Assembly (NCBI GenBank): GCA_963693365.1
Contig: CAVNZM010000002.1
Span: forward strand, 1 to 64,000
Direction: 5' to 3'
Origin: Amoebidium appalachense
Taxonomy: Eukaryota; Protista; Ichthyosporea
DNA length: 64,000 nucleotides
Shown: one piece after another, positions 1-53,620 of the stretch
Numbering within the stretch: the stretch's first letter is position 1
How the letters are laid out: each line of letters begins with the position of its first letter
The notes under the pieces: model-generated
The model's database searches: none
The model's input: only the letters and a program-made list of their open reading frames with translations
Told to the model about the DNA's origin: nothing
Program-made: the position numbers and the translations under genes

Positions 1-243
1 TGGAATGGGCAGAGGCTCACGTTCACAAACCAGTCCCATACAAAACCGAGTTGCGCACTTGCACAGGCAGCGTAGCTGCGCAGACAAACAACAAACTATG
101 CTCTCAGGCTGGCGTACACAGGGAGTCAGAGTGAAGAAATGCTAGCGATGTTTCCTGCCAAATGGACCCGGCACGCCGGGTGCCCCAGGGGGAAGGGGGG
201 GGGCCGGGGAGGGGGGGGAGGGGGAGGGGCACACACATGAAGG

Positions 244-294
<51 letters not shown>

Positions 295-1147
295 CACACC
301 ACCCAACTGCAAACCCGCCCCTTCCTCCCCTCCGAATCACCTCCTCCCTTGAATCACGTCTGTATATATAGTCATCTCACATTCCCACCCCTGCTTTTCT
401 TCTTTAAACCTCCCCCCCGTCTCCCTCCCCCCCGGGATCCGATCTCTCCCCATCACTCTGCCTTGCTCTCTCATTCCTAGCCACCTAACTGCTACCCCCC
501 TCCCCTCCCTCCCCCCGTGCCTGACCTTGCCCTCCGAATCCTTTCTCCTGCTCTCTTTGTGCTTAAACTGCATCATCCTCTCTCAGACGTCAATCTAGAA
601 GCTATTACATTTGTCTCCCGGAACCCCTCCTCCCTCCCCCTCCCTTCCCTTCCCCCCTCCTCCCCCCCCCCCTCCCCCCCCCCCCTCCCCCCCCCCCCCC
701 CCCTTGGCACCCAGCAGCACGGGGCCTCAAACACACACAAGTACACTCTGTCACCCACCACACACACACACACTTGCACAGGGGCCTAGGGCCAATGAGT
801 GTTTCCATGTTTGCTAGTTCCGTGCTGTGGAAGAGCTATTCTGCGCATATGAAAAACTGATGTGCCTGCACACTGCATGCATTTCCGTAGATATAAACAC
901 GTTCTTTTCACGCTTATAGTTTATTGTACAAACAACAAAAGTGAGTACTTGCTGATGTCTGAACCAAAGGATTTTTTTTATTGTCAAAATTTTCTCAAGC
1001 ATGCTTCGACAAAATCAGTCGGTCACACAAACGTATTGCCTCTCATTCTGCAGACAAAATTTCAATCCCACATGTCCGTGCAGAAGTTGCATCCATCAAC
1101 TATCACATGGGCCATGTCCGGATAAACACTGACCTAGTGCCGTTTCT

Positions 1148-1975
1148 CTACCTGCACTCGAAATAATTCTCCTGCAGGGCCTCATGTAGCCGGGCAAAGA
1201 CACCATCATGCCACGTCCTGAACTCCTGCCACTCCTCCTTAGGCATAGTGACCGAGAGCATGTTTAGCCACCCACCCACAATCAGGTCGGCATAGGTGGC
1301 CCGTTCGCCCTCGAGGTACGGTCCGCTTTTGTGGACCATGAAGAGCTGGGCAAGTGACGTCAGTGCCTCCTTAAAAGCCGCCTTGAGCGGTTCTCTTGCC
1401 TCGCCCCGGATGGAAAGGTCATCCCACAAGCGCAGGTGTGCGCGCTTGGCAAAAAGTGCCTTTACCGTTTCGGCAGTGTCCGGGTTGAAGGGGAGGAACT
1501 CGCCAACGAGAATCATGTTAGCGGAGAAGGTGGCATCTACGTGCGTGTTGAACCTCGCATAGGCCTCATTCTTTTTGCCCTCGTTGGTCGTCAGAGGGGC
1601 GTAGAAGGGCGTGTCCTTGTTGGGGCTTTCGTAGTCCAGCCCTGTGTGGGTAGAGTCTGCAGGGAAAAGGCAGCCACCCGATTCTGGGAACATATCGTCG
1701 AGGTAGTTGGCAATGTCAAAGGAATCACCAACGACCGTGCCCGAGGCGGGGTCCTGCAGCATGGGCAGTGTGTAGAAGTCAGACCCATCGTCCAGCTTGC
1801 GGACGGCTGGGCAGTTTAACCCTTTGCGAACACTAGGGATTTCGAGGATATCGACAAAGGTGGTCTTGAAGGGCACACGTTTAAAGCTCAGTGCGAGACG
1901 GGCCTTGGAAGGGTTGGGCGCGTAGGAGCGCGGTTTTAAGGGTGAAGAGATGTCGTAAAGGATAAGTTCTGCCAT
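1148..1975 (-). CDS. Glutathione S-transferase, fungal GSTFuA/GTE (Fhb7-like) class, intronless, 275 aa
   Basis: Clean single ORF. N-terminal thioredoxin-fold motifs (LYDI..., PNPSKARLALSFKRVP, TLPMLQD, VVGDSFDIANYLD) and C-terminal GPYLEGERATYADLIVGGWL / WHDGVFARLHEAL. These match, from recall, the ascomycete family that includes Epichloe/wheatgrass Fhb7. Confidence 0.9.
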   Translation of the reverse strand: MAELILYDISSPLKPRSYAPNPSKARLALSFKRVPFKTTFVDILEIPSVRKGLNCPAVRKLDDGSDFYTLPMLQDPASGTVVGDSFDIANYLDDMFPESGGCLFPADSTHTGLDYESPNKDTPFYAPLTTNEGKKNEAYARFNTHVDATFSANMILVGEFLPFNPDTAETVKALFAKRAHLRLWDDLSIRGEAREPLKAAFKEALTSLAQLFMVHKSGPYLEGERATYADLIVGGWLNMLSVTMPKEEWQEFRTWHDGVFARLHEALQENYFECR

Positions 1976-2346
1976 TTTCGAAGACGTGTGCTAGTGAACT
2001 GGGTAAACCGTGCAAGCCCAAGCGTGTATACGTTACGTAAGGCTTACAAGCCAAGCCTTGTACATGTCATGACTGGCACCTGGCCAGCCAGCCTGGGTAG
2101 GTGTCCTCGGCCAAAATATGTGGTCACCACGGTTCAAAATATGTGGTCACCACGGTTCCGATTAGTGATTGGCTACGAGTGACGACATCATGACATCATG
2201 CTTTAAACGAGGACTCAAGGCCGAGCGGAGGACAAGCTCCGGCAGTGTCCACGCAATAAAAAGTGTGTAAACCCCGGAGGACAACACCTGAGCCACAAGC
2301 TTGTGCATTTTTATTTCTTGCTAACGGCACACAACAGCCTGTCAAG
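1976..2346. promoter_or_regulatory. Short bidirectional promoter between the GST and the oxidoreductase
   Basis: 371 bp between divergent ATGs. Contains palindromic TTACGTAA (2033-2040), a 23-bp tandem duplication caaaatatgtggtcaccacggtt x2 (about 2112-2157), ATTGG and TGACATCA motifs. Confidence 0.55.
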
Positions 2347-3748
2347 ATGACCTCTTCCTTCACCCTTCCAGCCACCATGCGTGCTGCTACTCAGCTGGCG
2401 TACGGCATCACCAAAGAATCAATCGTAGTGCAAGAGGTGCCCACACCTGTTCTCGACCCAGCCAGCGACCATGTTCTCATTCGAGTGCACCTGGCCTCCA
2501 TTAATGCCGGTGACATCCGCGTGGCACGTGGTGACATAAAACTAGTCATGGGCCGCACATTTCCACACGTGTTGGGCATGGATGTTGCTGGAACGATCGT
2601 AGCTGTGGGTGCCAAGTGCCAGAAACTCAAGGTGGGAGATGAAGTTTTCGGAGACATGGGAGAGCGCGGGACCATGGCGGAGTACGTGTGTGCGCCCGAG
2701 ACACAACTGGTAGTCAAGCCCAAGAATGTGTCGTTTGAAGAGGCCGCAGCTGTGCCTGTGGCCGCGGTGACAGCCTACCAGGTGAGGACGGACCGTTATC
2801 TTCTTTCTCTCCCCATCTGCGTGCTTGCGTGCGTCCTTGTGTGTGCGCCGCGTGCACGTGCTTGCTTGCGTTATTATGAACGTACTTTGCGTGCGTGCGT
2901 GCGTGCGTGTGCGCGTGCAGGCGGGCAAGTGTGGGTGAGCAGGCTTAGTGAGAGCGGTTTTCTATGCAACTACCCCTTTATGCACTACTGGAACCATTAT
3001 GTAAGGTGGCATGCTCAGGAAGAGGGATGCAGAGCGAGAGGCCTCTAACCATGTTGGCATACTTGCTGTTGTACAACCAGGATGAACATTTGTGAATGCA
3101 AATTGATTGTAAACCGCTGCTGACGTACACCCGTGCAAACAACAGGCACTCAAGAAGCACGTCAACTTGGCCAGCGGGCAAAGGATTCTCATTCTCGGCG
3201 GGTCTGGCGGGGTGGGGAGTTTTGCAGTGCAGATTGCTAAGAGCATGGGCGCATACGTGTGCGCAACATCGAGCAATGTCTCACTGTTGAAAGACATTGG
3301 GGCCGACCGTGCGATTAATTACACGGAGGAGAAGTGGTGGGAGGTGCTGAAGGGGGAAAACTATGACGCATTAGTGGATTGCGTGGGTGAAGGATGGGCC
3401 CATGCACCGGACGTTTTAAAGAAAGGCGGTCGGTTTTGTCCGGTCAGTGCTGGGGACCAATACGATGGAGTTTTAACAATCGGTACACTTGTGCACATGA
3501 TTAGTTTTATGGCCATCCGCTCTGTTACTAGTGCGCTTGGACTCTCGCCATCCTACGCCCCATACCTTACGGATCCATCGGACATAACCTCACTTCAGGC
3601 ATTAGCAGGTTTACTTGGGGAGAAGAAGATCAAGGCGGTGTATGACCCTGTTGGGTTCTATGAACTGACGACGGAAAGTGTCCTGGCCATGTTCGAGTAC
3701 ATGAATAGTGGCCGTGTGAAGGGCAAGTTGGTGCTGAAGGTAATGTGA
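2347..3748 (+). CDS. MDR-superfamily NADPH quinone/alkenal oxidoreductase (zeta-crystallin/RTN4IP1/AOR-like), about 345 aa, 2 exons (2347-2781, 3146-3748)
   Basis: Motifs VLIRVHLASINAGD, PHVLGMDVAG, LKVGDEVFG, EEAAAVPVAAVTAYQ|ALKK, Rossmann LILGGSGGVGSFAVQIAK and C-terminal GRVKGKLVL. A phase-0 GT-AG intron (2782-3145) joins the two track ORFs. Confidence 0.9.
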
Positions 3749-4044
3749 GCAACTTGGTTGACTGATGAGCGCTGCCACGGTGTAGTGGATTTGTGTGTAA
3801 GACTGAAGTGTGTTTCAGTGTATTGTAGTGTGTTCTGTTTGTCTCAGGCAGCCACACATACATGGGCGTAAACACGTGTAACTAAGATTGGATACGGGTG
3901 CACATAGCAATAGAGAATCATTTATAAAACAAACAAAAAAGTAGGAATATGTACATACACCTGCGGATTTGCGGATGTGCCTGTGCTCTTGTTGGAATGT
4001 CTGTCTATATGTTATCTTGAGTAGTCAGTCACCTATCCCCCCCT

Positions 4045-4106
<62 letters not shown>

Positions 4107-4712
4107 GACACACACACACACACACGTGTGCGCGCGCGCACACACACACACACACACGTGGCCCCTCTCCTCCACTCTCAAGCACGTAAGACCATCTACG
4201 TCACACATAAGAGTACTCCTATTTTGATCCTATATAGCACGAATGTTTGTGCTGTATATAGAACAAGGGATTTATTTGGAGTTGTGATTTCAGTTTGACG
4301 TTAAGCTTAAATAAAAAGTTAAATAAAAATGGGTACTTTAAAATAATACATGATAAGAACCCCCGCCCCCCCCCCCAAAGCTAAAAAGAAAAAAGAAAAA
4401 AAGCACCAGTGCTACTTTTGATCTACATGCCCTTTTAGCTTCGTTTGTGTGTGCCCTAATAGGGTCTTTTTGCATGCAGTACCACTCTCCTCGAGGCAAC
4501 ACTGAGCACGTCATACAGTACGCCACAGGCGCAAACTTCTGCTCGCTGGGATTCATTAGAAACAACCATAGGAACCATGCATTTGGCTGCTCGGCATGGG
4601 GTGTCTTGAATCCCCGCATCTAATTTCCACTCTTGGCCGCGGTTGTTAGGGCCACCTGCAGTGGATTTTATAAGTGAACGAATGGGAGTGGCGAATGTGT
4701 GTGTGTGTGTCT

Positions 4713-4743
<31 letters not shown>

Positions 4744-5067
4744 GGGTTCACAGTCACACGTGTCATAAAAATTATAGGCTTCAAGCTCTTTTTTTTTGGC
4801 ATCCCGTCGTGGCAACAGTATCAATATCAGTGCCCTATTGTGGTGTGGAAGTGTGCGCCCGCACACATGAACGTACGGGCTCACGGGCCCACGTGTGTGT
4901 TTGTGGGTGTGTGTCTGTGAATGTTTTAAGGGGTGCGGGAACCCTTGATCATGCATAATCCATTCACAACTTCACATCAAGGCTTACATCACCCGTCATT
5001 CGACCACTGAAAGCGTTCAGAACACTAGCATGTGCAAGCATCATGCACACCTTGGCTCTGCAGGTAC

Positions 5068-5508
5068 CTAATCCAGAGGAAGGAGGTAGGCCATGGGGCA
5101 CTTTCCAGACTGGCCCCCACACTCAGCAACCACCCAGTTGCCGTCGAGATGCATCTGGTGGATTCGATATCAGTGCCTGGCCATGCGACAGATTATGGTC
5201 TCAACAGACCCTGAATCCGATGGGTAGTGGTTGCACGTCTCCGGCAGGGCGACATACCAGCTCAAGTTCAAGTCAGATGCACCACAAATATTGGGCGCTA
5301 AGTCTCGGCGTCAATTTTCATTAGGGGACTCGGAGGGACTCTACACCTCGAATCGAGTCAGGCCTGCATCTATCCGAACTTATTCAATTGACAGCCATGT
5401 GCAACCTTTCTGTCTGTGTGATGAACCACAAAGCCCCCAAGAAGATGTGGCTATGTACATTACCGTGGGGCTCGGCACTCCGCTACCAGGGAGACGGGGG
5501 GGGGGGGG

Positions 5509-5547
<39 letters not shown>

Positions 5548-5603
5548 GCTTCGGTTGGTTCTGTCTCTCCGTTTGGGGGTTAACATGTCTTGGGGGAAGA
5601 ATG

Positions 5604-5645
<42 letters not shown>

Positions 5646-6040
5646 GGCTAACCTGAATAGTGACCTCAGCACCCGCCTGAAGTGTCAGCTCGGTGGCAGC
5701 CATTGGTTCGTAGTCGTAGAGGGCACGGGCACGGTGGGGAAGGGGTTTCTTGGCTGGGTTGGGAGCATATATATGTCCATAAGCAATCAGGCAATTCATA
5801 TTGTTTCAGCCCATAACCCCAAGAACCAAGCCATTAATCATGCACCCACTGTGTGGTGTGTGCAGGCGGCCATGGCCACCAGGCCATGCAGACGTCAAAC
5901 ACCGCCCCACAACAACCCGCAACTCCAGTACCACGTGCCCAGGACACATCCAGTCCACCTGTACTACCCCCCCTCCCCAAACACACACACACACACATAC
6001 ATACACCCCCCACTCCCCCCTCCTCCCCCTCCCCTGCCCT

Positions 6041-6101
<61 letters not shown>

Positions 6102-6138
6102 CTCCTCCTCCCCCTCCCCTTCCCTCCCCCTCCCCCCC

Positions 6139-6169
<31 letters not shown>

Positions 6170-9100
6170 AACACACACACACACACAACTTCATGGCAAG
6201 GCACAGCCAGCTGTACCACCACCATCATTACGCACAGAACCACACAGCCCGTCTCCAACCCCAGCTGGCAGTATTCAGTCACCGCATTAGCCATCAGGCC
6301 CGCCTACCAAAGGTGTCCACGGCCAGCCCATCATCAACATCCAGACTTGTGGCCCGGTACATGGGGGGTGTCACCGTGCGGAATGTTTTGGCAGCAGCAC
6401 CAGGGGACTCACTGCAAACAGCACAGGTTAGCGACTAGCACCATACGGTGCACCATCAGGTGAATATACTGTCCCGCATGATGTACAGTCTATACGGCTG
6501 GGGGAGATGGTAACTTCTTTGTGCGGGCTCTAGGATCATCGTGCTTTGTGCGGGCTCTAGGATCATCGTGTTAGCAACATATGCCCCAATTGCCACACTG
6601 CTGCGCAAAGGGAGACCATAACAATATCAATTCTATTGGTTGGCCAGCTGCAAACCTTTTGCTTGTGTTTGACCAGCATAGACAGCCCCACACACCTGTT
6701 CGCACTGTCCAAGTCCGGCAGCTCTGCCATTGCCCGGTGGAGGATGGCCACAGCCCTGCGATGATACTCCAGCTGCAGCTGCAGTAGCACCCTGACGGCA
6801 TGCGCCTGCCTGACCTGCAGGCCATGCAGCAGCGTGAGGGGGCATTGGTCATCCTTGGTTTCTGGGTTTTTGGCTTTTCGTTTCTTATGCCACGTGTGAA
6901 GGGGGGGAAGGGGGGGGGGGGGGGGGGGAGGGGAGAGAGGGGGCGGGAAGGGGGAGGGGGGAGGGAGAAGGGATGGAGTGGTGGAGGGAAGGAGGATGTG
7001 AGGAGGGGTGGAGTGTGGGAGGGGAAAAGGGGCGGGGAAGGGAGGGAGGGGAAGGGGGGGGGAGAGGGGAGAGAGAGAGGGAGGGAGAAGGGGGGGCAGG
7101 GGGGGGGGAGGGCGGGGGAGGGCGGGGGGGGGGGGGGGGGGGGGGGGGGAGAAGGGAGGGATGAGGGTGGGAAGGAGGATGTAAGGGTGGAGAGGAGGGT
7201 GGAGTGTGGGAGGGGAAAAGGGGGGGGGGGAGGGTGGGGAGAGAGGGGGGGGGGGGAAGGGGGGGGGGAAGGGGGGGGGAAGGGAGGGAGCGGGGAAGGG
7301 GAGGGGGGGGGGAGGGGGGGGGCTGAGGGGAGGGGGTGGGTGGGGGAAGGGGGGGGGGGGGGGGGGGGGGGGAGGTAGTGAGGGAGGGAATGGGGATGTG
7401 AGGGTGGAGGGGAGGGCGGAGTGTGGGAGGGAAAAAGGGGGGGGGGGAGGGAGGGAGGGGGGGGGGGGGGGGGGGGGGGGGAAGGGGGGGGGGGAGGGAT
7501 AGAGGGAGGGGGGAAGAGGAGGAGGGGGGAGGGGGGAGGGAGGGAGGGAGGGAAAGGGGGGGGCGGGGAGGGGGGGGGGGAGGAGGGGGGGAGGGAGGGA
7601 GGAAGGGAGGGTGGGAGGGTGGGAGGGGGGAGGGGAGGGGGGAGGACAGGGGGGGGGGAAGGGGGGCCAGAATGTGGAAGAGGGAGAGAGTGATGAGAGA
7701 GAGAGATAATGAGAGTGGCGGAGGAAAGGAGGGATGAAGGGGAGGGGGAGGGGAGGGAGGGAGGGAGCGAGGGAGGGATGGGGAGGGGGAGTATTAGGGA
7801 AGGGAAAGAGGAAGAGAGTGAGGGAAGAGGGGACTGGGGTTGGGGGAGGAGGTGGGCCGGGGGAGGGGGGGAGAGGGAGGGGGGGAGATGGAATGGGAGG
7901 GGACGGGTAGGAGGGAGGGAGAGAGGGGGGCAAAGAGAGAAGAGAGACTTGTGCACTTATGCATGCACAGGCGCAGTCAGGACTACCCAAGTCCACCTGC
8001 CCCTCCCCTCTTGCTCCCCTCGTGCGGCACCAAAAGCCCCTTGGCAAATCCGTACACAAGCCTACCGCACGCACGCCACCAAACTTTACCTCCCTAGTTG
8101 TTCTCTCCTTCGAGTATAATGCCACTCCCCACACCTGCTCCCCCCCCCTCCCCCCCCCCCCCCCCCCCCCCCCCCCTCCCCCCTGCTCCCCCACGGTTAT
8201 GCTTAGGAAGGTAGAAACTGTGTGTGTTAGGCATGCAGTGGCTGTGTGCTATGAGTGCCAGTGGTTGCTAAACAGATGTGTTCGGGTAGTTGTGGGCATG
8301 CAAATCATATGGGCTGGCAGGCATCGAGCAAGTATACATATGTAGTTGTTACTATGTGGAATCTTTAACGACCAATGTCTTATACAGAGCAAGGCGGTCC
8401 TGGTCAGTGCGTTGAATGCGTATGTGTGCGCTCTGGAGAGGTGGGTGGGCCGGGAGAGGGGGGGAGGGGGGTAGGGGGTACCGGAGTATCTGAGAGGGCA
8501 TCGAGGGAGCAGTCCACAGCCTCGCACTGGCGGTCAAAGTCGAACTGCACCTGGCGCAGACTGGCATCGGCCTGCACCAGACACTGAGCCAGAACACGCT
8601 AAATGGTTTCTAGAAGCACATCCCTAGACACTCGCTTTCTTCCTTCCTCTTTTACTTTCCCATCCTGGCAATGGAATCTCTCGCATTTGAAAACACTCTT
8701 TGACATGAGCGCCAACAAGACATCCAAGCCCAAGCGACCTTGATGTGTTTGTGCACGTTTGCATCAAACACCCACAAAAACATCAACACATGTCTGCGCG
8801 AATAGTGTTCCGAATGTAACTCAGTACAGTGCAGGGTGGGAAACGTGGGCAGGGGGGGGGGGGGGGGGGCTGATTACTGCTGCCCGAGTGTCTGCCGTGC
8901 TTGCTCTGCGGGTGGCAGCCTTTGCTGCGTCCAAGTCCAGCCGCAGCATGCTGAGCCGCCGCTCTTGCTCCTGCACACAGAAAATGGCCCGGCCATCAGC
9001 CACAACCCACACTCGTGTTTGTGCTGCCGGTATGTTGCTACACCTGTTCTCACCCCTATCTTGGCATGGGGTAGTAAGAGGTGTATGTCCGTACTCGTGA

Positions 9101-9976
9101 TCGACATGTGCAGCCTTAGTTGAAAGACATGGGTCCTGGAGCGCTTCCTACAGGCTTGCATCCTTACAACACCACGGTGCATTTATGCAGCTGGCCGATC
9201 AAGGGGGCCGCCACCCACCCTAGTTTGCTACAAAGAGTGCATGTTCACCATGCACATGGCCAGGGGCAAACCATGCTTTCTTGGTACAGTGTAGGCCACG
9301 GATACGTGCTGACTTCATGCCAGTCAAAAGACACACTTGCATGCACAAGAACAGGTCTCTGTGTGCAGGTGGGCCTTACCGTCAAGACCTTGATGTCGGT
9401 ATCCAGTTGGGTGCGCAGGGGCCTCAGGGCCTCGGCCAGGGTGTTTGCACAGAAGTCCACATACTCGCTGCCTACATCCTCCTCGGCATCGGCAGACACC
9501 TGCAGGGTCCGTCCTGCACGTGCATGCGCATGCCATGGGTGTGTATCCGTCAACATAGGTGAATCGTTAACCCTTTAGTACATGCTATAAAGAAAACAGG
9601 GAAGTGCACATGTGCATAGTGTCGGCATAGGTATGTGTGTACAAGTGTAGCTGTGGGGGGGGTGTCGCTGTGTGTCAGTAGGTGTGTAGGGGTTTGGTTG
9701 TAGACGTGTAGTTGTGTGGGTGTGGGCTTCTCCTGTGGGCATGTGTGTTTCACTGGCACATGCCTGTATCTGTATGTGTGCCTGCGTGTCTAACTTTCAT
9801 GCGGTCGTGCCCCAGATAGTACTACATACAAGTCTGTTGCACGAACTATGTGTGTCTGTCGCAATTATGTGCAAGTGTGTGTGAAGGTGTGTGCATATGT
9901 GTGCATGTTAATGAGCCCTCTATGACAGTGTGCCGGTGCACATGCAAGAATTTGTTATTTTCCACGATATTGTGTT

Positions 9977-10025
<49 letters not shown>

Positions 10026-11590
10026 GTGTACGCGTGTTTGTGTGTGCACATGTGTGTGTGTGTGATTATGTGCGTGTGTGTGTGCTTGTGTGTGTGCGTG
10101 TGATTGTGTGTGTGTGTGTGTGTGCTGTGTGTGTGTGTGTGTGTGTGCACGTGTGGGTGTGTGCATGTGTGCGTGGGTGTAAGTGTGGGGTGCGGACGTG
10201 TGAGTGTACGTGCCCGTGTGTGGGTACGTGCCCGTGCATGTGTGTGCGCGTAGGTGGGTGGGTGGATGGGTGGATGGGTCTCTGTGTGTGTGGATCAATG
10301 TGTGTATGTGTGTGTGTGCGTGTGTTTTTGGGCAGGTGTGTTGAATGACTGTATGAGTGAGTGAGTTTTTGCTCCAATGCCAAGGGATGGGTGTGGTAAG
10401 TCTACTCGGTATGGCAGCATGCCTAAGGTTTGCCTGTGATGGCCTGTGTGTCTGTGTATCTGCCTGCCGATATGCCCTATGCAAGTCTATCGATCTATTG
10501 GCTTCATTGCCTGCTATGGCTGAACGCAAAGGTGCATATCGGACCCCTCCCCCGAGACTTTTTCCAGCAGCAAGCATCTTCCAATGTCCCATACAGCCAG
10601 ACATGCCTGTCTCGAGCTACCCACCATACGCTGTGGCAGAGCACACATCTTATCAGCACAACTTAAGCACGTGCCCAACACAGCCATACCTAAGGGTGTG
10701 TCGGTGCCATGTGCCTCAGCTGCAGACCGAAAGGTAGCGGCCAGTCGGTGGCAGTCCGATGTGTCGGCCGGCTTCTTGCCCAGGGCAGCCACCGGCACAA
10801 GTTTCTCCAGGTTGAACCCTGCATAGGCAGGTGTCTGTGTGTCAGCGCACAAAGGCCAATCCGTGTGCCCTGCATCACCATTGCCCTAGGTCGAAAGTGT
10901 GTGTGCCGGTATGCTATATTGAGGGCAGTCTTCTGGTGTTGTGATAAATATCCGCCCACACGAAAAACATACCGATAGCCACTCACTCACACAAGTGCAA
11001 CTGGGCACCAAGATATGTGTGTGTGCTTGTGAGTGTGTGTACACGTGCATGCAATGGCGTGCGCGTGCGTGTGTGTGTGTGTGCGCGCGCATGTGTGCGT
11101 GTGTGCGTGCACGTGTGCTAAAACGGGGTGGGAAGGGCCTTGACATACCCTTTTCGGGCGTCAAGAAGGACTCCAGCTCCCGGGCAATCTTCTCTGTCTG
11201 CTGCCGCAGTGTGCCTGCAGCCTGACCCACCCAGTGACGTCAGCGGATCCATTGCAACATGCACAACACTGCTACTGCAAGCGCTCGCATGAAAACGGCG
11301 CATGTGCCCGTGGGTCTGCCGTGCATAAGTAATTTGGTTGAAAGGCATGTTCATTTTGGGCACAGCCAAACTGTAGACCGAGGAGCAATTATCACCTTGC
11401 ATTCACACACTAAACAGACAAACCCACACACATGCACACACACACACTTTCACAGCATGCACGGACACACAGATACACACACCACCGACACGGCTCACCT
11501 GTCATAAATACAATACAGACACATACAGGCACATGTGCCCTGACACACAAGGCGGAAAGACAGGAGAGCAAAAAACGGAAAGGGGCGGGG

Positions 11591-11633
<43 letters not shown>

Positions 11634-11770
11634 AGAAGAGACTAGCAGAGAACCTCCAGTCTCTTTTTTCTCCCTCCCCATTTCCCTCCCTCCCCTTACC
11701 CCCCCCCTCCCCCCCCGCCTCCCAACACACACGAACACATGCGCACGCGCACACACGTGCGCGCGCACAC

Positions 11771-11808
<38 letters not shown>

Positions 11809-11830
11809 GCACACGCACATGCACACGCAC

Positions 11831-11862
<32 letters not shown>

Positions 11863-13201
11863 GCACGCGCACGCACACGCGCACGCACACGCACGCGCAC
11901 GCGCACATGCACACGCACACGCACATACACACACACACACACACCATTAGACACTGTGACCCTGTCGTGTGTGCATACTCGTGTATCAGAGCATAAGTGC
12001 CACAGAAGGCCATGCCAGTGGCTGGGTCTGCTCAGCCTTCACCAACAAGCGGGATCAAACGTGCGCTTGCAATGGTCAACTGTGCAGGTGGTCTGTGGGC
12101 ACGTGTGGCCAAATGTATGCTTGTCTGTATACGTCGTATTCGTGTGTGTGTGTGTGTGTGTGTGTGCACGCATAAACATGACTTTGTGTGTTTATGTGTG
12201 GGTGTGCACGTGTGCGTGTCGTTGCCTGTCGTTGCCTGTGCATGTGCACGTGTGCACACACTGTGTGTGTACGTCTTTGTGTGTGTGCGCGTGTGTATAG
12301 GCCTGTGTGTGTGCAGGTCTGCTGTGCATGTGTATACGTGTGCATCATGATGCAAGCGCGCATGCGGGCGCACACTGTGCGTGCATGCGTTAACACACAC
12401 ACACGCACATAGTCTTGTGGATAATGCGCGCTACTACACCCAGCCAGCTGCATTAGACTACGTGGGGTGTACGCGCCCACCCACCTGCAGGCGGCCACTC
12501 AGACCCTCCAGCTCTGTTTTTGGCGCACTCCCGAGGTTCTCCTCCGTGTACTGCACCCACCCCGCCCTCAGACAACCTGAACAGGTAGGGGAGAGAGCCT
12601 CACTATTGCTGGCGAACCGGAAAGTTCTATGTTTTACTTATGAGCACGGCCGGGGCTGTGGCAAATAATAGTGTTCAATCCCAGTCAAAAAGAAAAGAAA
12701 AGAAAAGAAGAAAAGAAAAGAAAAGAAAAGAAAAGAAGAGGAGAGGAAAAGCAACTTTTGGTTAAGTGTTCTTGCCCTTCATGCCACCAACCACCCACAA
12801 GGAAAACATCCAGCAGCAAGGTTCATGGATGCAGTTTACGAGGCAGATGGTGCAATGGATGGATGGAAAGAATAAAAGGAAACGCAGAGAAACACCTCGG
12901 GGACTAGTGAGTGGGGAGGGCCGAGAGGGGAAGAGAGGGGAGAGGGAGTTGGAAGGGAGGGGGGGTGGGGGTGGGGGGGGTGGGGGGTCGTACCTGTACT
13001 GCACGGGTGAAGAGTCTTGCAGAGGACTCACCCAGCCACCTCAGGCCATGGCTGACCTTTCCCACTGTGGCCTCCACGTCAAGGTTTGGAACCTCGGCCC
13101 CAGCTTTTCCTGCAACGTGGCGTAAGCGAAGGCAGGATAAGCAAGATGTGCCGGCACATTCTTTTTCTTTATAACCCACCTGGAAGGGGACTGGAGAACA
13201 T
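5068..13201 (-). CDS. SH3GLB: Endophilin-B-like N-BAR + SH3 protein, about 381 aa, 12 exons (13201-13180, 13109-12994, 12550-12485, 11221-11149, 10818-10690, 9513-9380, 8970-8878, 8583-8482, 6814-6696, 6411-6308, 5753-5653, 5154-5068)
   Basis: Manual splicing at GT-AG sites gives a phase-consistent 1146-nt CDS. It carries endophilin B hallmarks [41 protein letters not shown] and SH3 ARALYDYE...ELTL / [20 protein letters not shown]. The first exon and the exon 8 acceptor are less certain. Confidence 0.8.
6900..7930. repeat. About 1 kb G/A-rich low-complexity tract inside an endophilin intron
   Basis: Almost pure G/A on the + strand. It generates the spurious poly-Pro/poly-Gly ORFs at 6563-8194 and nearby. 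Confidence 0.9.
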
Positions 13202-35492: not shown

Positions 35493-38400
35493 TGTTATAA
35501 TACGTAGTATTTACATATTGTAAGATCTTCTCAGTTCGTGTTATGTTTTCATTCATTTACTTAATGAAAAAGATGTGCTCCTTGTACGTAAATTATGACA
35601 TCGATCTCCAGTGTATTTGAGTACTTGTAATCGTGTTGTGTCGGCTATATTCGTGTGTTTAGATATCGATTACAGCAACTGATTATAGGTACACGAGTCT
35701 ACCCAGTGAGGGAGACACGTGTACATGTTATGTGTACATGAATATCTTCGGTTATAACTGTGTTTTGCTGTTCGTGTTTTCTGTCCTGCTTTCTTTTCTT
35801 TTTCCTCTTTCTTCGTCTTTTCTTTTCTCTTTCTTTCTTCTCTTGTTTCCTTTCATTTAATTATATTTCTCTCTCACTAATATACGTTGAGTAGATTTAT
35901 ATTACTCGTTATGTTTTGATTGGTAGAAAAACACTTAGGTTACACTTTAGCTTGTCAGGTATGATTCATAGCTTAGTCAACCACTTTTGTTTTGTGTGTT
36001 GCCGTACTATATCCAATCAGTGGACTTAGTCAGAAAATGTCTGAGTCTTTGTAGCCGATGATAGGTTAGAAACACCACCTCTTTCCTCGTTACTCTTCAC
36101 CTCTTTTCTTTCTTATAGCTGTGACCTATGGTGTGTGTTCCCGCGTCTCCGGATCTATCCGGGAAATAATCAGTTAATTATGATTGGTTATTTTAGACAT
36201 AGATCTGATTTCCGACTGGTCGGAAATCATGTATGGATTTAACTTAAGGGAATTTCAGGTATTTATTAGCGATCAAAATAAATTGAGTTCAGTCGTGTCT
36301 AAACATTGATGTCTGTTGTGTACACTGCTCCGATCGTTCCGTGTTTTGTTGTTGTGTGTGTCTGTGGTGTTTTCACACTGCACCACTGTGTCTCTGCTTA
36401 CATCCTAAATACTTATAGAATTTAACAGGTTATGCAGCCCTTTTGCACGCTCCCTACACACATCTAGAACTCGCGCTCGTTTTTCAATCATGGATCCAAA
36501 CAAAACTGGCGTAAACAAAATCACCATGTGGAAAGGTGAAGGGAAGACTGGTCCCGATAGCAAAACTACCTATTTTCAATGGGAAATCATTTTTCTCGGC
36601 ATGATGACCGGCACTAAAGGTGTCCGACTCGTGGATGTTGTCCTTGCTGACAACTACGTCCCCCCTACCACCGTCGCGGTTGACGGTGAACCCCCCTTCT
36701 ATGGCTACGGCACTACCGCGGAACTCAAAGAGGCCCGCAATTGCCTCCTGCTCCATATGATACAGAACATCGACCCTTCCGTCCTCACCACCGTTGCCCA
36801 GTACCGTATTGGCATGGACCCTGAACGGGCCATGTGGAAATTCCGTCAACACTATCTCCAAGGCAAACCCGATCAGATCCGCATCCTTCACCGTCAGTGG
36901 GATGCCTGTGCCCTTCAGCCCGGTGAATCATTCACCACCTACCTGAGCCGTCTGCAGACCATCGTGAACCAGCTCCAGTCTCTCCAAGATGAGTCCATTC
37001 ACTTCACTCGTCTAGCTGAGAAGTTCTTCAATGAACTCACCACCAGAGACGACCTCACCCCTGAGTTCAATCGTCTTATCGAAGACTATCACTTCGGTGA
37101 TAAGCTATTCCCCGACTTCGAGTCCCTCCATAACCACGTCAAGGGCATCGAGTTACGTCAAGACCTCAAGATGCAACTCCGGAACAACCGTGCCCACCGT
37201 GCCTCCAAGTCCAGCATGGCATTAAATGCCAGTGCTCCCCCCCGTGATCTTCCTCGCCGTGACTTACGCACCCGACTTGACCGTACCTCTGGCACGGACC
37301 TCCGAACTCGTCTCTCCCGTCAGCACACCCGATCCCGTTCCCCCCACCGGCCTGTCTTCCGGTCCACGTCTCGTTCCCCCAGTCGTTCCCGTTTCTCGGG
37401 TTCCCGTCGTTCTGATTCCCCGGCTCGTTCTAACACCCCGTCCGTGAAAGAATGCTCCTACTGCCACGAGCCTGATCACACGATCATCGATTGCCCTGAG
37501 CCGAAATGCCGTATGTCCAGACACAACCGTTCCCGTCAAGGCAGTGAGAAATCTGTCTCCTTTGCTTTCTCGGCATACAATGCTAGCTCCGTCCCCGTGT
37601 CCTCCGACCCTGCCTGGGATTCCGGGTGCAACATGACTGTTTGCCCCACCCGTGAGTTCTTCCATGACCTCACTCCCCTTCCGACACCGACTCCCGTTGC
37701 TGCCTTCAATGGCACCCCCGTCTTGGCCACTCACACCGGCCATATCGTCATCAACACCACCACCGACCATGGCACTACCACCCTAACCATTGAAGCCTAC
37801 TACACCCCGTCTGGCCAAGCCTTCCTCATTTCAACATCCCAAGCTGCTGCCGAATACATCAAGGGTGATTTGAACGATGCCTCCACTCCGTCATTCCTCT
37901 TCGACCGACTCACCGGCCGTCATCTCGTCAACCTCCGTCTACACAACGGTCTGTATTACTTCAAGGACTACACCATTCAACCACCCACTCGTCCTGTGGC
38001 TCTGGCTGCCACTACCAGTGTTAACCCATCCATCTGGCACCATCGTCTGGGGCACCGAGCTATGACCAGCATCAAGGACATGGTGAAACACGACCTTGTT
38101 ATTGGTCTCCCCTCCTCTGTCCTCGACTGTGATGTTCCTGATTGTCATGGCTGCATTATGGGTAAGACCACCAAGGCTCCGTTCAGGGGTGACCGTCCTC
38201 ACTCCAACATCCCCGGTCATGAATGGCATTGGGATTTTTTTGAGCCTACCACAACATCGTACGGAGGTTCCAAGGTTGCTCTCGTCACTGTCTGCCGTGC
38301 CTCTGGCCTCGTCAAGATCTACCCGATGGCCGACCGTACCACCACCCTGGATATTCTCACAGCTCACACCAACCTCGTTGCCACCCATGCCCCCTCCAAA

Positions 38401-41400
38401 GTTGGTGTTTACCACTTCGACTCCGGCTCTGAGTTCACCTCCAAGGATACCCGTGCTTTTTGCCTCTCCCAGGGCATCAAGGCCAGCTATGCTCCGGTGG
38501 ACTGCCCTCAACTGAACGGCTATGTTGAACGACGTATGCGGTTCCTCCAAGAGATTGTCTGTTGCCTCCTCCATCAAGTCCAAGATCAGTCTCTGTCTCC
38601 CAAACTGTGGGCTGAGGCCCTCCAACATGCCGCCTACATCATCAACGTCACCCCGTCCACGACTGCCAATGGTCGTACACCATTCGAGGTTTTCTACGGT
38701 GTCAAGCCCGACATCTCCGAGCTCAAAGTGTTCGGTTGCCCTGCCTACACTCACGTGCCAGCCTCTAAACGGAACAAGCTGGCCCCCACCGTCAAACTCG
38801 GCATGTATATCGGCTATGATCTTCAATCACACTGCCACCGGATCTTCAATGCCACCACCCATCGTGTCGGCCTCTTCCGTGATGTGATTTTCGACGAATC
38901 AGCTTATCTCCCGTCCGACATTCCATCAACCCTTCCGACCCCCGACACCACTGCTACCTCGACCACCCCACCCCCCACAGTTGACACTGAAGATGATGTT
39001 TGTCTGGTGTACTCTGGCCCCCCTCCTGCCATCGTCGTTCCCCCGACACCCCCCCCCACCGGCCCCCCTGCCCCCGTGCCCGTCCAGCCTGCCGACCCTC
39101 ATCCTGCCCCTGGCAACGTCACACCCATCCGACCCGGCTCCCCCGACAACTTCCACTCGGCCCCGTCCAGCCCGGAGGTTGCCCCCCCTGCACTTCCGAA
39201 CTTCCAAGTTCCCCCCCCACCGTCTCCACCTACCCCGGTTCCTGCACCCCGTCGTTCTGCCCGTCTCCAGGGCAAGGTTGGACTTCAAGCCACCACCACC
39301 CTGCCAGTCCCCCCCGGTCCCCCCATCAACATCGACCAACTACCCAAACTTGTCCGTCAACTCTGTTCCGGACCCAATGGTGATCAGGTCAAGTCAGCCC
39401 TGACTGCTGAGTATCAAGCCTTCGTCGACAAAGACATCTTTGAACTTGTTGACCCTCCCCCTGGTGCTAACATCGTCGGCTTCAAGTGGATTGTCTCCGA
39501 GAAAACTCTCAACTCGGCTGGTGACACCAAGATCAAGGCACGTGGTGTTGCTCAAGGCTTCAGTCAGCAATACGGTGTTGACTATGAGTTGATTGAGAGC
39601 CCTGTCATCCGTCCGGCTGCTCTCCGTGCCATCCTGGCTCTGGCCGTTGTTGAAGGTCATGACATACATCAACTCGACGTGTCTACGGCCTTTCTCAACA
39701 GCCCACTCACCGAGACCATCTACATGAAACAACCCCCGGGATTCATCACCATGGCCACACTTGGCAAGGTCTGGAGACTCAAGAAAGCCCTGTACGGCCT
39801 CAAGCAAGCCTCCAAGGCTTGGTACGACTTCCTCGACGGCATTCTTCTTGCCCATGGCCTGACCCGTACTAAGACCGACCCGTGCATCTACCTCCGGTTC
39901 TTCCCCAACAACGATGTGGTACGGGCTGGTAACTACGTCGATGACTCCACCATCACCAACACCCGGGGTTCTACTGCTGCCAGTGACCTGGCTGCCCACA
40001 TCAGCAAGATGGCCAGCTGTCGTATGAGTCCATTTGACCGTATGCTCGGTGTTGATTTTAATCACTCTGATCCCCATCACCTCCACATGCACCAGAGGTC
40101 TTACATCATGGATATCATCCACGACTTCAACCTCACCGATGCCAAGTCCAAGTCTACCCCCATCCCTGCAGGCACCACCGTCTCCCTGGCTGATTGCCCC
40201 CCCCAACCGTTCACCGTGCCCTACCGTGAGTTACTCGGCCGTCTCCTCTGGGTGGCACGGTGCACACGTCCCGACATTGCCTATGCCATCGGCTTCCTTG
40301 GTCGGTTCAGCACCAACCCCGGCAAGACTCACTGGGACCTTCTCCGTCGTGTGGCCCGGTACCTGCTCGGCACCATTGACCTTGGCATTGACTACAAGTA
40401 CTCGGCCACCCAGTCCCCCATACTCGAATGCTACACGGATGCTGACTTTGCTGGTTGTGCCGACAGCAAGAAGTCTACCACCGGCTACATTATCGTGTTT
40501 GCTGGTATGCCCGTCATCTGGTACTCCAAGCTCCAGCCCATCACGGCCACCAGCACCACTGAAGCTGAGCTGATTGCTCTCAATGCTGGCACCCAAGAAG
40601 TTGCTTGGGTCCGTGACCTCTTCAAGGAACTCGGCTGTCCCATGCTTGCTCCGACTCCGGTGTACTGTGACAACCAGTCGACCATCGCCATCGTCAACTC
40701 CACCGGCATCAAGCACCGTACCAAACACATTGCCGTCCGGTATCACAACACCAAGGACTACATTGCCAGTGGGGACGTGGTTGTCCACTACGTTGAGTCA
40801 GCCCACAACTTAGCTGACATACTCACCAAACCCCTCCCCGGCCCGAGTCATGTCCACCATCGTGCTCGACTTTGTTTACCGGATATTGTGGATTGACCCG
40901 ACCTACTTCAAGAGTGATTTTCTCATGTGTACTACTTACTTTATCAACATCATTATATCATATGTATTGCCTTTGTGGGTATGCCCACTTAGGGTTTATA
41001 TATAAGGTTTGACCTGTACCATCACTCTACTCTATCTTTCACTGGTTTAAAACCCCGTTAATCAAACACCGCCTATACACGTGATATATATTCGTTGTTT
41101 TTGCCCCGGTTCCTTCCCCCCCTCCCCCCCCCCCCCCCCTTCCCCCCCCCTTCCCCCCCCTTCCCCCCCCCCTCCCCCCCCCCTTCTCCCCCCCCCCCCC
41201 CCCGGGAAAAGTACACACTTTAATTTTTTTTTTTTCCGTTTCTGTTCTCAAGTGGGGAGATTTCACTAGTTCAGTGGGGATATGATAACACAAACTTCAA
41301 AGTCTTAAGTGGGGATGTTATAATACGTAGTATTTACATATTGTAAGATCTTCTCAGTTCGTGTTATGTTTTCATTCATTTACTTAATGAAAAAGATGTG

Positions 41401-42250
41401 CTCCTTGTACGTAAATTATGACATCGATCTCCAGTGTATTTGAGTACTTGTAATCGTGTTGTGTCGGCTATATTCGTGTGTTTAGATATCGATTACAGCA
41501 ACTGATTATAGGTACACGAGTCTACCCAGTGAGGGAGACACGTGTACATGTTATGTGTACATGAATATCTTCGGTTATAACTGTGTTTTGCTGTTCGTGT
41601 TTTCTGTCCTGCTTTCTTTTCTTTTTCCTCTTTCTTCGTCTTTTCTTTTCTCTTTCTTTCTTCTCTTGTTTCCTTTCATTTAATTATATTTCTCTCTCAC
41701 TAATATACGTTGAGTAGATTTATATTACTCGTTATGTTTTGATTGGTAGAAAAACACTTAGGTTACACTTTAGCTTGTCAGGTATGATTCATAGCTTAGT
41801 CAACCACTTTTGTTTTGTGTGTTGCCGTACTATATCCAATCAGTGGACTTAGTCAGAAAATGTCTGAGTCTTTGTAGCCGATGATAGGTTAGAAACACCA
41901 CCTCTTTCCTCGTTACTCTTCACCTCTTTTCTTTCTTATAGCTGTGACCTATGGTGTGTGTTCCCGCGTCTCCGGATCTATCCGGGAAATAATCAGTTAA
42001 TTATGATTGGTTATTTTAGACATAGATCTGATTTCCGACTGGTCGGAAATCATGTATGGATTTAACTTAAGGGAATTTCAGGTATTTATTAGCGATCAAA
42101 ATAAATTGAGTTCAGTCGTGTCTAAACATTGATGTCTGTTGTGTACACTGCTCCGATCGTTCCGTGTTTTGTTGTTGTGTGTGTCTGTGGTGTTTTCACA
42201 CTGCACCACTGTGTCTCTGCTTACATCCTAAATACTTATAGAATTTAACA
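35493..42250 (+). mobile_element. Intact Ty1/Copia retrotransposon (family D), 6758 bp
   Basis: 935-bp LTRs (35493-36427, 41316-42250) with no difference seen by eye. TSD gggag, PBS GGTTATGCAGCCC at 36428, PPT AAGTGGGGA ending at 41315, single uninterrupted ORF. Confidence 0.96.
36490..40896 (+). CDS. Copia Gag-Pol polyprotein (gag-PR-IN-RT-RH), 1468 aa
   Basis: Zinc knuckle CSYCHEPDHTIIDC, protease WDSGC, integrase WHHRLGH..CHGC / WHWDF / FDSGSEF / NGYVER, RT HQLDVSTAFL / LKKALYGLKQA / YVDD, RNase H YTDADFAG / TEAE / DNQS / ADILTKPL. Confidence 0.97.
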   Translation: MDPNKTGVNKITMWKGEGKTGPDSKTTYFQWEIIFLGMMTGTKGVRLVDVVLADNYVPPTTVAVDGEPPFYGYGTTAELKEARNCLLLHMIQNIDPSVLTTVAQYRIGMDPERAMWKFRQHYLQGKPDQIRILHRQWDACALQPGESFTTYLSRLQTIVNQLQSLQDESIHFTRLAEKFFNELTTRDDLTPEFNRLIEDYHFGDKLFPDFESLHNHVKGIELRQDLKMQLRNNRAHRASKSSMALNASAPPRDLPRRDLRTRLDRTSGTDLRTRLSRQHTRSRSPHRPVFRSTSRSPSRSRFSGSRRSDSPARSNTPSVKECSYCHEPDHTIIDCPEPKCRMSRHNRSRQGSEKSVSFAFSAYNASSVPVSSDPAWDSGCNMTVCPTREFFHDLTPLPTPTPVAAFNGTPVLATHTGHIVINTTTDHGTTTLTIEAYYTPSGQAFLISTSQAAAEYIKGDLNDASTPSFLFDRLTGRHLVNLRLHNGLYYFKDYTIQPPTRPVALAATTSVNPSIWHHRLGHRAMTSIKDMVKHDLVIGLPSSVLDCDVPDCHGCIMGKTTKAPFRGDRPHSNIPGHEWHWDFFEPTTTSYGGSKVALVTVCRASGLVKIYPMADRTTTLDILTAHTNLVATHAPSKVGVYHFDSGSEFTSKDTRAFCLSQGIKASYAPVDCPQLNGYVERRMRFLQEIVCCLLHQVQDQSLSPKLWAEALQHAAYIINVTPSTTANGRTPFEVFYGVKPDISELKVFGCPAYTHVPASKRNKLAPTVKLGMYIGYDLQSHCHRIFNATTHRVGLFRDVIFDESAYLPSDIPSTLPTPDTTATSTTPPPTVDTEDDVCLVYSGPPPAIVVPPTPPPTGPPAPVPVQPADPHPAPGNVTPIRPGSPDNFHSAPSSPEVAPPALPNFQVPPPPSPPTPVPAPRRSARLQGKVGLQATTTLPVPPGPPINIDQLPKLVRQLCSGPNGDQVKSALTAEYQAFVDKDIFELVDPPPGANIVGFKWIVSEKTLNSAGDTKIKARGVAQGFSQQYGVDYELIESPVIRPAALRAILALAVVEGHDIHQLDVSTAFLNSPLTETIYMKQPPGFITMATLGKVWRLKKALYGLKQASKAWYDFLDGILLAHGLTRTKTDPCIYLRFFPNNDVVRAGNYVDDSTITNTRGSTAASDLAAHISKMASCRMSPFDRMLGVDFNHSDPHHLHMHQRSYIMDIIHDFNLTDAKSKSTPIPAGTTVSLADCPPQPFTVPYRELLGRLLWVARCTRPDIAYAIGFLGRFSTNPGKTHWDLLRRVARYLLGTIDLGIDYKYSATQSPILECYTDADFAGCADSKKSTTGYIIVFAGMPVIWYSKLQPITATSTTEAELIALNAGTQEVAWVRDLFKELGCPMLAPTPVYCDNQSTIAIVNSTGIKHRTKHIAVRYHNTKDYIASGDVVVHYVESAHNLADILTKPLPGPSHVHHRARLCLPDIVD

Positions 42251-44835: not shown

Positions 44836-48751
<3,916 letters not shown>

Positions 48752-52666: not shown

Positions 52667-53620
52667 GTGTGCATGTGTGTGTGTGCGAGCGCGCTCTGAC
52701 GTGTGTGTGTGAGCGTGAGCGTGAGTGTGAGTGTGAGTGCGTGTGTGTGTGTGTGTGTGTGTGTGGTGTGGATGTGTATGTGTATGTGTATATGTGTGTG
52801 TGGGCGTGTCGGTGTATGTGAGTATGAGTGTGTAGTGCATGTGCATGAGTTTGCCAGTGTGCATGTGCATTTGTGTGTGTGTGTTTGTAACAGTGTGTGC
52901 ATGTGTACATGTGTGTGTGTGTGTGTGTGTGCTTGAGCATCTGTACTTGACTGTGTGGATCAATGTGAAGTGCAGCCAGAGACCACAAGCAGATGCACTG
53001 CACCCAGGCAGGTTTGTCTGTGGGTGTGTGCTGTTATGTGCACCCACAAGCAACCCAATGACAGTCAGACAACACAGGGGCACAGACCTCTGCAGCATGC
53101 CGGGCAGGACTGCACGTGTGACGTAAGTGAGTGCCCTCATGTTAAGCCTGAAGATCATGTCGATCTTTGAGGGCTCTATCTCCAGGAAGTAGTCTGGGTG
53201 CTCGTACCCCACCCCCGCATTGTTGACCAGCACCCCCACATCCAGCCCCTCGATGGCCTGGCCCAGTGACGTGAACACGCTGTCGTCACCAGACAGGTCC
53301 AGGGCCACGGTCTTGGTCTGCACCTTGTACTTGCTCTCTGCAGGGCCCATGCGTCAGAATCATGTTTACCCCCCCACCCCCCCAAACAACCAACCAACCT
53401 CTCCTACCTTGCCATACCCCCCCCCCCCCCCCCCCCTCCTTCCCTCTCTTTTCCCAAACACACACATCAATCCGCCTACGCCACCACACCGCCATCACTC
53501 CATGGTGCAATAGCTGGTGCAGCCAAGCATTCATTCGGGTTATGTCCTCAGTAGTGGAATGAGGACTGGTGGCTTCGAGTATGCCATTGAGGTGCCCCAG
53601 CCTGTGTAACACACACCTCC

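Follow-up and report, generated by a model that had tools for sequence, protein, structure and literature searches.

A gene for a fungal-type glutathione transferase (GST) lies in the 64,000-nucleotide stretch of Amoebidium appalachense contig CAVNZM010000002.1 that we analyzed (the window), and our favored reading, which we hold at somewhat better than even probability, is that it is a transcribed, intronless ichthyosporean gene of filamentous-fungus origin with a predicted role in detoxifying epoxide-bearing and other electrophiles by adding glutathione, as Fhb7 does. The donor would have been an ascomycete carrying a member of a widely distributed subfamily, and little of the transferred DNA besides the coding sequence would still be recognizable; insertion would have placed the gene head-to-head with a native oxidoreductase, and it may be driven from the promoter region of that neighbor. 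Coordinates are collected in Table 1.

Table 1. Features discussed in the text, with positions in the window
Feature	Positions	Strand	Basis or remark
GST coding sequence, fungal-type GTE/GSTFuA, sister subfamily of Fhb7	1148..1975	-	intronless, 275 aa
Maximal extent of RNA-type contigs across the GST	791..2106	- (from ORF)	X11 791-1999, X6 915-2021, X7 828-2106
Poly-C tract just beyond the GST 3' end	624..703	.	type common in the window's introns
Head-to-head spacer between GST and oxidoreductase, 371 nt	1976..2346	.	sequence inspection
High-copy genomic repeat, 39 nt	2237..2275	.	summed depth 48,926 versus 59 in X1
Native NADPH:quinone-reductase-like MDR oxidoreductase	2347..3748	+	exons 2347-2781, 3146-3748
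KAR (very-long-chain 3-oxoacyl-CoA reductase) exon	53090..53338	-	used for host placement

The original prediction of a complete, intronless open reading frame was confirmed: the GST frame runs from ATG to TAG without interruption, and its translation contains all six of the motifs that had been quoted, in the order claimed. Two of these, VGDSFDIA and WHxGxFxRLH, are closer to CtGST or the engineered Fhb7-M10 than to wild-type Fhb7, which has IGDSLDIA and CHGAIFGQLH at those places in structure 7YOC. Pfam domains GST_N_2 (E 4.7e-9) and GST_C_7, UstS-like (E 2.5e-13), were found, and the top four of the 10 matches in a PDB sequence search were CtGST, Fhb7, and variants (E 1e-70 to 1.4e-69; CtGST [7YP0] at 1e-70 and Fhb7 [7YOC] at 4e-70), followed by basidiomycete GSTFuA/GTE enzymes (E 1e-16 to 1e-23). 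The folds closest to an AlphaFold model built from the 32-row alignment described below (pLDDT 83.5) were those of CtGST and Fhb7-M10 (TM 0.75 to 0.84, 42 to 45% identity), with GSTFuA1-3 ranked behind them at 24 to 25% identity, and the top clusters of an ESM Atlas search were GSTs from fungal-dominated clusters only. By its domains and nearest folds, the protein is a member of the fungal GTE/GSTFuA class. It had also been described as the sole intronless gene of its surroundings, and this held in part. The other host genes inspected have introns, which in the KAR, BAR-like, and BTB-WD40 genes read from the sequence as long and mostly microsatellite-rich; however, since the BTB-WD40 genes carry more than 400 codons in one exon, an intronless GST is only a weak signal here. 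Codon usage of the GST is closer to that of fungal homologues than to that of host genes, but usage in the native oxidoreductase likewise leans toward fungi, so this test does not discriminate.

A protein search with the GST found 344 proteins, and the 119 listed besides the GST itself (best 120 of 344) are 68 to 82% identical to it. Forty of these 119 carry an organism name, comprising 35 ascomycetes, two agarics (Coprinopsis and Favolaschia), Hyaloraphidium, Balamuthia, and Scenedesmus. The top named relative is from Balamuthia mandrillaris (82%; three accessions, on contigs of up to 171 kb), with Trematosphaeria tied at 81%, Cladophialophora proteins at 76 to 77%, and Scenedesmus at 70%, and none of the 119 listed matches is ichthyosporean. 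A search of 50% representatives returned 786 matches, of which the best 150 were listed; among 11 of the top representatives that were looked up, the named ones were all fungi, including the chytrid Phlyctochytrium (56%). A metagenome scan for relatives yielded 27 loci, and rows L020, L021, and L022 to L024 among them served as the Fhb7-type outgroup.

The GST had been presented as Fhb7-like, and in the strict sense it falls outside the Fhb7/CtGST clade. Against Fhb7 (7YOC), L020 and L021 score 354 to 389 bits and the GST 240 bits, at about 45% identity (42 to 48%). The split between the GST clade and the Fhb7/CtGST-type clade has a support of 100 both in a 68-row mixture-model tree (a quick tree) and in a 32-row tree with bootstrap (29 named rows, with all unnamed ingroup rows left out), where L020, L021, and L023 represent the Fhb7 type and Fhb7 itself lies outside the tree. 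The GST thus belongs to a sister clade of Fhb7/CtGST and is not an orthologue. Within its own subfamily the tree is star-like, with no supported sister group of the GST. Dothideomycete monophyly was the sole rejection in AU tests (p 0.0038); p values were 0.24 for Ascomycota, 0.10 for Leotiomycetes, 0.16 for Eurotiomycetes, 0.41 for the non-fungal rows, 0.48 for the GST with Balamuthia, 0.34 for the GST outside all fungal rows, and 0.26 for the GST beside the Fhb7-type outgroup. Given the last two values, an ascomycete donor is not proven, and the tree neither supports nor rejects nesting within Pezizomycotina; the proposed horizontal acquisition appears to hold through the distance to fungal copies considered below.

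We regard it as unlikely that a gene of fungal ancestry arrived here by way of another protist, an alga, or an early-diverging fungus, as part of repeated movement among microbial eukaryotes. Such a relay would account for Balamuthia being the top named match, for the failure of AU tests to reject a grouping of the three non-fungal rows, and for a weak group in a 139-row quick tree that joins the GST with Balamuthia, Scenedesmus, Hyaloraphidium, Coniochaeta, and other proteins (SH-aLRT 83). However, this group is absent from the 68-row and 32-row trees, Trematosphaeria matches the GST equally well, and the lowest dS measured is to a fungal-type locus, in a comparison that Balamuthia DNA lies outside.

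Fourteen Fhb7 residues are named as important in the accessible part of PMC10900206, and 13 of them are retained in the GST when mapped by eye on the 7YOC alignment, in which the chain number equals the Fhb7 number plus 2 (N30, K33, R68, D93, S94, N150, D154, L168, F182, R185, Y235, W243, and M246). The N-K-W-N-D network (N30/K33/W243/N150/D154) corresponds to GST N21/K24/W236/N143/D147, and the S-Y-D-water network (D93/S94/Y235) to D84/S85/Y228. Also retained are the epoxide-activating R68 (GST R59), the substrate/GSH-binding R185 (R178), and three of the four residues of the hydrophobic DON pocket (L168/F182/M246, corresponding to L161/F175/M239); the fourth, V161, is M154 in the GST and is the least important site according to the same part of that source. 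In all 139 of 139 subfamily rows, R68, R185, N30, K33, D93, D154, Y235, and W243 are invariant. Ser occupies the position of Fhb7 W32 in 136 of the 139, and the loop between helices 2 and 4 is unlike that of Fhb7; together, these two differences suggest that the pocket may differ from that of Fhb7. In the mechanism we propose, the first network and D84-S85-Y228 would activate glutathione through Asn-assisted formation of the thiolate, R59 would polarize the epoxide for ring opening to a glutathione adduct, and the natural substrates would be fungal or plant-litter electrophiles generally, not trichothecenes specifically. Since 13 of the 14 residues are retained, including the epoxide-activating Arg, epoxide-opening chemistry is a plausible prediction from the sequence; activity on DON in vitro might equally well be present or absent.

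It is quite unlikely, in our view, that the gene is kept specifically as a trichothecene shield, as Fhb7 is in wheatgrass. The retained set, with both R68 and R185, speaks for such a role and makes protection from mycotoxins plausible, and in the accessible part of PMC10900206 four fungal Fhb7 homologues also convert DON. In CsGST83044, an enzyme inactive on DON, the loop around the R68 position is a different one. Yet the GST scores well below the Fhb7-type rows and falls outside the Fhb7/CtGST clade at full support, its catalytic residues do not vary among the subfamily rows, and it appears in RNA-type runs with no recorded toxin challenge. Most hosts of the subfamily are not known as producers or targets of trichothecenes, which also counts against this role. 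A broader detoxification of electrophiles remains our preferred reading.

As had been proposed, the host is non-fungal. The best match of the KAR exon is from Ichthyophonus hoferi (66%, E 9e-28); the other 119 matches listed (best 120 of 280) reach 41 to 58% and are mostly from plants, with a few agarics, and as a control the listed fungal matches show 45 to 48% identity to this native exon. Exon 2 of the oxidoreductase matched a Logan protein first (49%), followed by Ichthyophonus hoferi (49%) and Sphaeroforma arctica (40%), among the best 120 of 955 matches. Ichthyophonus is classified in Ichthyosporea, Ichthyophonida, and since it provides the best named match of both neighbors, the host is an ichthyosporean. 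Amoebidium and Ichthyophonus belong to the same order and share one clade in the available portion of PMC11286789, and the microsatellite introns and copia elements of the window fit the description of an intron-rich, repetitive Amoebidium genome in the portions available of PMC11244446 and PMC11286789. Elsewhere in the window, a multi-exon gene at about 5200 to 13110 (minus strand), earlier labeled endophilin, has BAR- and SH3-like stretches by eye, and two BTB/POZ plus WD40 paralogues, both containing one large exon, lie on either side of KAR in opposite orientations (44836 to 46137, minus strand, and 58538 to 59779, plus strand). An intact copia-type gag-pol ORF of 1468 aa (36490 to 40896) is nested among other LTR elements at about 20 to 43 kb, and a long direct repeat can be seen by eye around it (about 35500 to 36430 and 41320 to 42250).

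There is a high likelihood that the GST is resident in this host genome and transcribed. The stretch is present in 15 of the 24 runs listed, from four studies (three without the possible source study), and the GST protein is also present in EukProt. Contigs of eight runs were mapped to the window, giving depths that are not copy numbers. In four DNA runs, depth over the GST resembles that over the oxidoreductase (59 versus 39 to 56 in X1, 147 versus 127 to 178 in X4, 6 to 9 versus 6 in X13, and 13 to 15 versus 11 in X14). Run X14, which bears another organism label, has a few substitutions of its own in both genes, among them Leu to Ser at GST codon 183, where Ser is common in homologues. No run is recorded as RNA; the RNA status of X6, X11, and X7 was inferred from splicing of the oxidoreductase intron (2782 to 3145, 364 nt, GT..AG) in all three. 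In each of these runs a single contig of its own spans the GST, giving neither the strand nor exact transcript ends (Table 1). The GST contig of X6 has a depth of 908, compared with 6 to 10 over the oxidoreductase intron, and spacer bin 2031 to 2151 is empty in X6 and X11, with X7 behaving alike.

We consider it very improbable that the GST stems from a fungal contaminant and that the assembly fused it with host DNA at the 39-nt repeat. None of the Logan short-read contigs joins the GST to the oxidoreductase: contigs of the GST from DNA runs stop inside this repeat and those of the oxidoreductase start inside it, so the link between the two genes rests on the window's assembly, as an artefact would have it. 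Against this stand the recurrence of the stretch across studies, the depth shared with the native neighbor, and the ends of the GST contigs, which stop within the high-copy host repeat at one end and reach a CA/poly-C tract at the other (starting at 716 in X4 and running past 700 in X14). Moreover, similarity to fungal loci is limited to positions 1143 to 1983, so that only coding sequence is recognizable as fungal.

The head-to-head arrangement leaves 371 nt between the GST and the native oxidoreductase, which hints that the promoter was borrowed, and the spacer is possibly a shared divergent promoter. It contains a 23-nt tandem duplication (2112 to 2158). A CCAAT-box-like word, GATTGG, at 2167 was ruled out as promoter evidence, as it occurs 42 times in the window, often inside repeats. 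The 39-nt repeat, which occurs once in the window, coincides with the 5' end of the transcript of the oxidoreductase; its other copies have about 15 to 22 additional upstream letters in common, and in RNA-type runs it is often near a contig end. It may represent a small mobile element or else a promoter- or leader-associated repeat, and an Rfam scan of positions 1 to 5000 returned nothing credible, there or elsewhere. A second short repeat, A-rich and common to many DNA and RNA-type contigs, lies in the 3' region of the oxidoreductase (3914 to 3957).

We compared the GST coding sequence with fungal-type loci at the nucleotide level. Locus L002, which has an AT-rich, RIP-like flank and whose encoded GST shares 95% identity with the Cudoniella/Lojkania group, is 81% identical to it over 821 nt. 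At fourfold sites the two are 59% identical versus 32% expected (n = 116, p 3.5e-9), a figure inflated by common codon preference, since the distant Fhb7-type loci L020 and L022 also show 42 to 44% versus 30 to 32% expected. The dS to L002 is 0.67, the lowest measured, and dS to seven other loci is 0.86 to 1.8. On the GST branch, which includes time in the donor lineage, dN/dS is 0.06 to 0.16 in 10 of 10 triplets. Vertical inheritance of an old opisthokont GST, kept here and in fungi and lost elsewhere, would suit the occurrence of the wider family in Phlyctochytrium, Hyaloraphidium, and agarics, and the AU tests do not reject a position outside fungi, but it is the least probable explanation, since unsaturated dS together with about 80% amino acid and 81% nucleotide identity makes the GST too similar to fungal copies when its native neighbors are only 66% and 49% identical to Ichthyophonus in protein sequence, and since no ichthyosporean is among the best 119 of the matches (120 of 344 listed, so that a weaker ichthyosporean copy may lie beyond them) though the database includes proteins of Ichthyophonus and Sphaeroforma. 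Altogether, the transfer into this lineage is probably real and recent.

No carrier element was found, as judged from the lack of a transposase, recombinase, or viral relative. Viral contigs contained no relative of the GST, whether searched with the single protein or by alignment, and prokaryote genomes contained none in the single-protein search. An alignment search of prokaryote genomes returned one match (L028:5001-5966) in a deltaproteobacterial MAG; this locus has stops in its reading frame, matches metagenome loci L018 and L019 at 99.9% identity, and is nearest to a Cadophora protein, and we read it as likely misbinned fungal DNA. Among 28 GST loci compared, flanks were common only to near-identical contigs, the Alternaria-like L010 to L012, and the pair L020/L022. 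A Pfam scan of 42 ORFs at 10 loci found differing fungal-type neighbors (HET, NACHT, Nup133, Rad10, Mss51, and kinase) and no transposase or recombinase.

The distribution of the subfamily suggests recent movement from fungus to fungus, with hidden paralogy as an alternative. Identity is 94.6% between the GSTs of Cudoniella (Leotiomycetes) and Lojkania (Dothideomycetes) and 90.6% between that of Emydomyces (Eurotiomycetes) and either of these, but drops to 76% between Lojkania and Alternaria, although these two belong to the Pleosporales. The 90%-identity cluster of P0015 (P0128 to P0140) has 59 members, the named ones spanning three ascomycete classes: Rutstroemia and Cudoniella; Dothidotthia, Lojkania, Trematosphaeria, and Lindgomyces; and Emydomyces. 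We entertain tentatively, as a doubtful extension, that the subfamily sister to Fhb7 behaves as a single-gene module of high mobility for epoxide detoxification, which would have jumped repeatedly between fungal classes and into amoebozoans, green algae, and an animal relative with the full Fhb7 catalytic set each time.

If that mobile-module reading is true, the subfamily would play, across eukaryotes, the part that a resistance gene plays in bacteria, directed against fungal epoxide toxins. What the data themselves present is a fungal-type gene, conserved, expressed, and in all likelihood resident, within a unicellular holozoan, where the transfers reported in the accessible parts of earlier work are bacterial, viral, or stramenopile-related. 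They also present a large subfamily adjoining Fhb7 that retains the key catalytic residues and is apparently unassayed, since our literature search found no enzyme assay of any member. Should the subfamily open trichothecene or other epoxides, it would offer a pool of candidate enzymes for detoxifying feed and crops and a case in which to test for repeated sharing of antitoxin genes among eukaryotes; should it not, the GST would represent an ordinary fungus-to-protist transfer of a detoxification enzyme.

Like Fhb7 of Thinopyrum (7YOC, 8K2O) and CtGST of Colletotrichum tofieldiae (7YP0, 8K2P), the GST has the Asn-type GTE active site within a closely similar fold, and like Fhb7 it is an intronless fungal-type gene within a non-fungal genome. 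It differs from both in its 42 to 45% identity, its place in a sister clade, and the replacement of W32 by Ser and V161 by Met. All DON-converting enzymes in the accessible part of PMC10900206 are Fhb7 homologues, CtGST being 70% identical to Fhb7; CsGST83044, inactive on DON, lacks the Arg loop. Its transfer also appears older than that of Fhb7, as Fhb7 DNA is 97% identical to Epichloe (bioRxiv 10.1101/2020.06.24.168203) and the GST is 81% identical to its nearest locus. Basidiomycete GSTFuA/GTE1 enzymes (Phanerochaete 4F03, 4LMV, and 4LMW; Ceriporiopsis 6J3E-H) share its Pfam domains GST_N_2 and GST_C_7 and a TM of about 0.7 but only 23 to 25% identity.

Closest in kind are the ligE-type, Fhb7-related GSTs reported from Acanthamoeba castellanii, green algae, and liverworts, which have about 60% DNA similarity to Fhb7, lie near Coniosporium and Cladophialophora copies, and are 93 to 96% similar to a fungal copy, with no contamination control described (bioRxiv 10.1101/2020.06.24.168203). 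These, like the GST here, are fungal GTE genes in non-fungal eukaryotes, and judging by the Cladophialophora matches they probably belong to the same subfamily. With those cases and with relatives at 70 to 82% identity in Balamuthia and Scenedesmus, the gene can no longer be called a second cross-kingdom transfer, as first proposed; it is probably one more of several. The preprint cases include no named ichthyosporean or holozoan, and unlike them the GST is diverged from fungal copies (dS 0.67 or more) and supported by depth, flanks, and expression.

Fhb7 homologues are described as mainly fungal in the available portion of PMC12566506, which leaves protists, amoebae, and algae unmentioned. 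We found no literature report of such a GST in ichthyosporeans, in a search that subscription papers lay outside, and the word "glutathione" has no occurrence in the main texts of PMC4739763 and PMC11244446 or in two supplements of the latter. Lateral acquisition as such is familiar in the group: the accessible parts of the respective papers describe bacterial LGT in Creolimax (PMC4739763), a laterally transferred nitrate cluster in ichthyosporeans (PMC11286789), and giant-virus insertions in Amoebidium (PMC11244446). The GST resembles these earlier cases in being a foreign gene, often intronless in such cases and yet transcribed, and differs from them in source, the earlier genes having come, in the parts of that work available, from bacterial, stramenopile-related, or viral sources.
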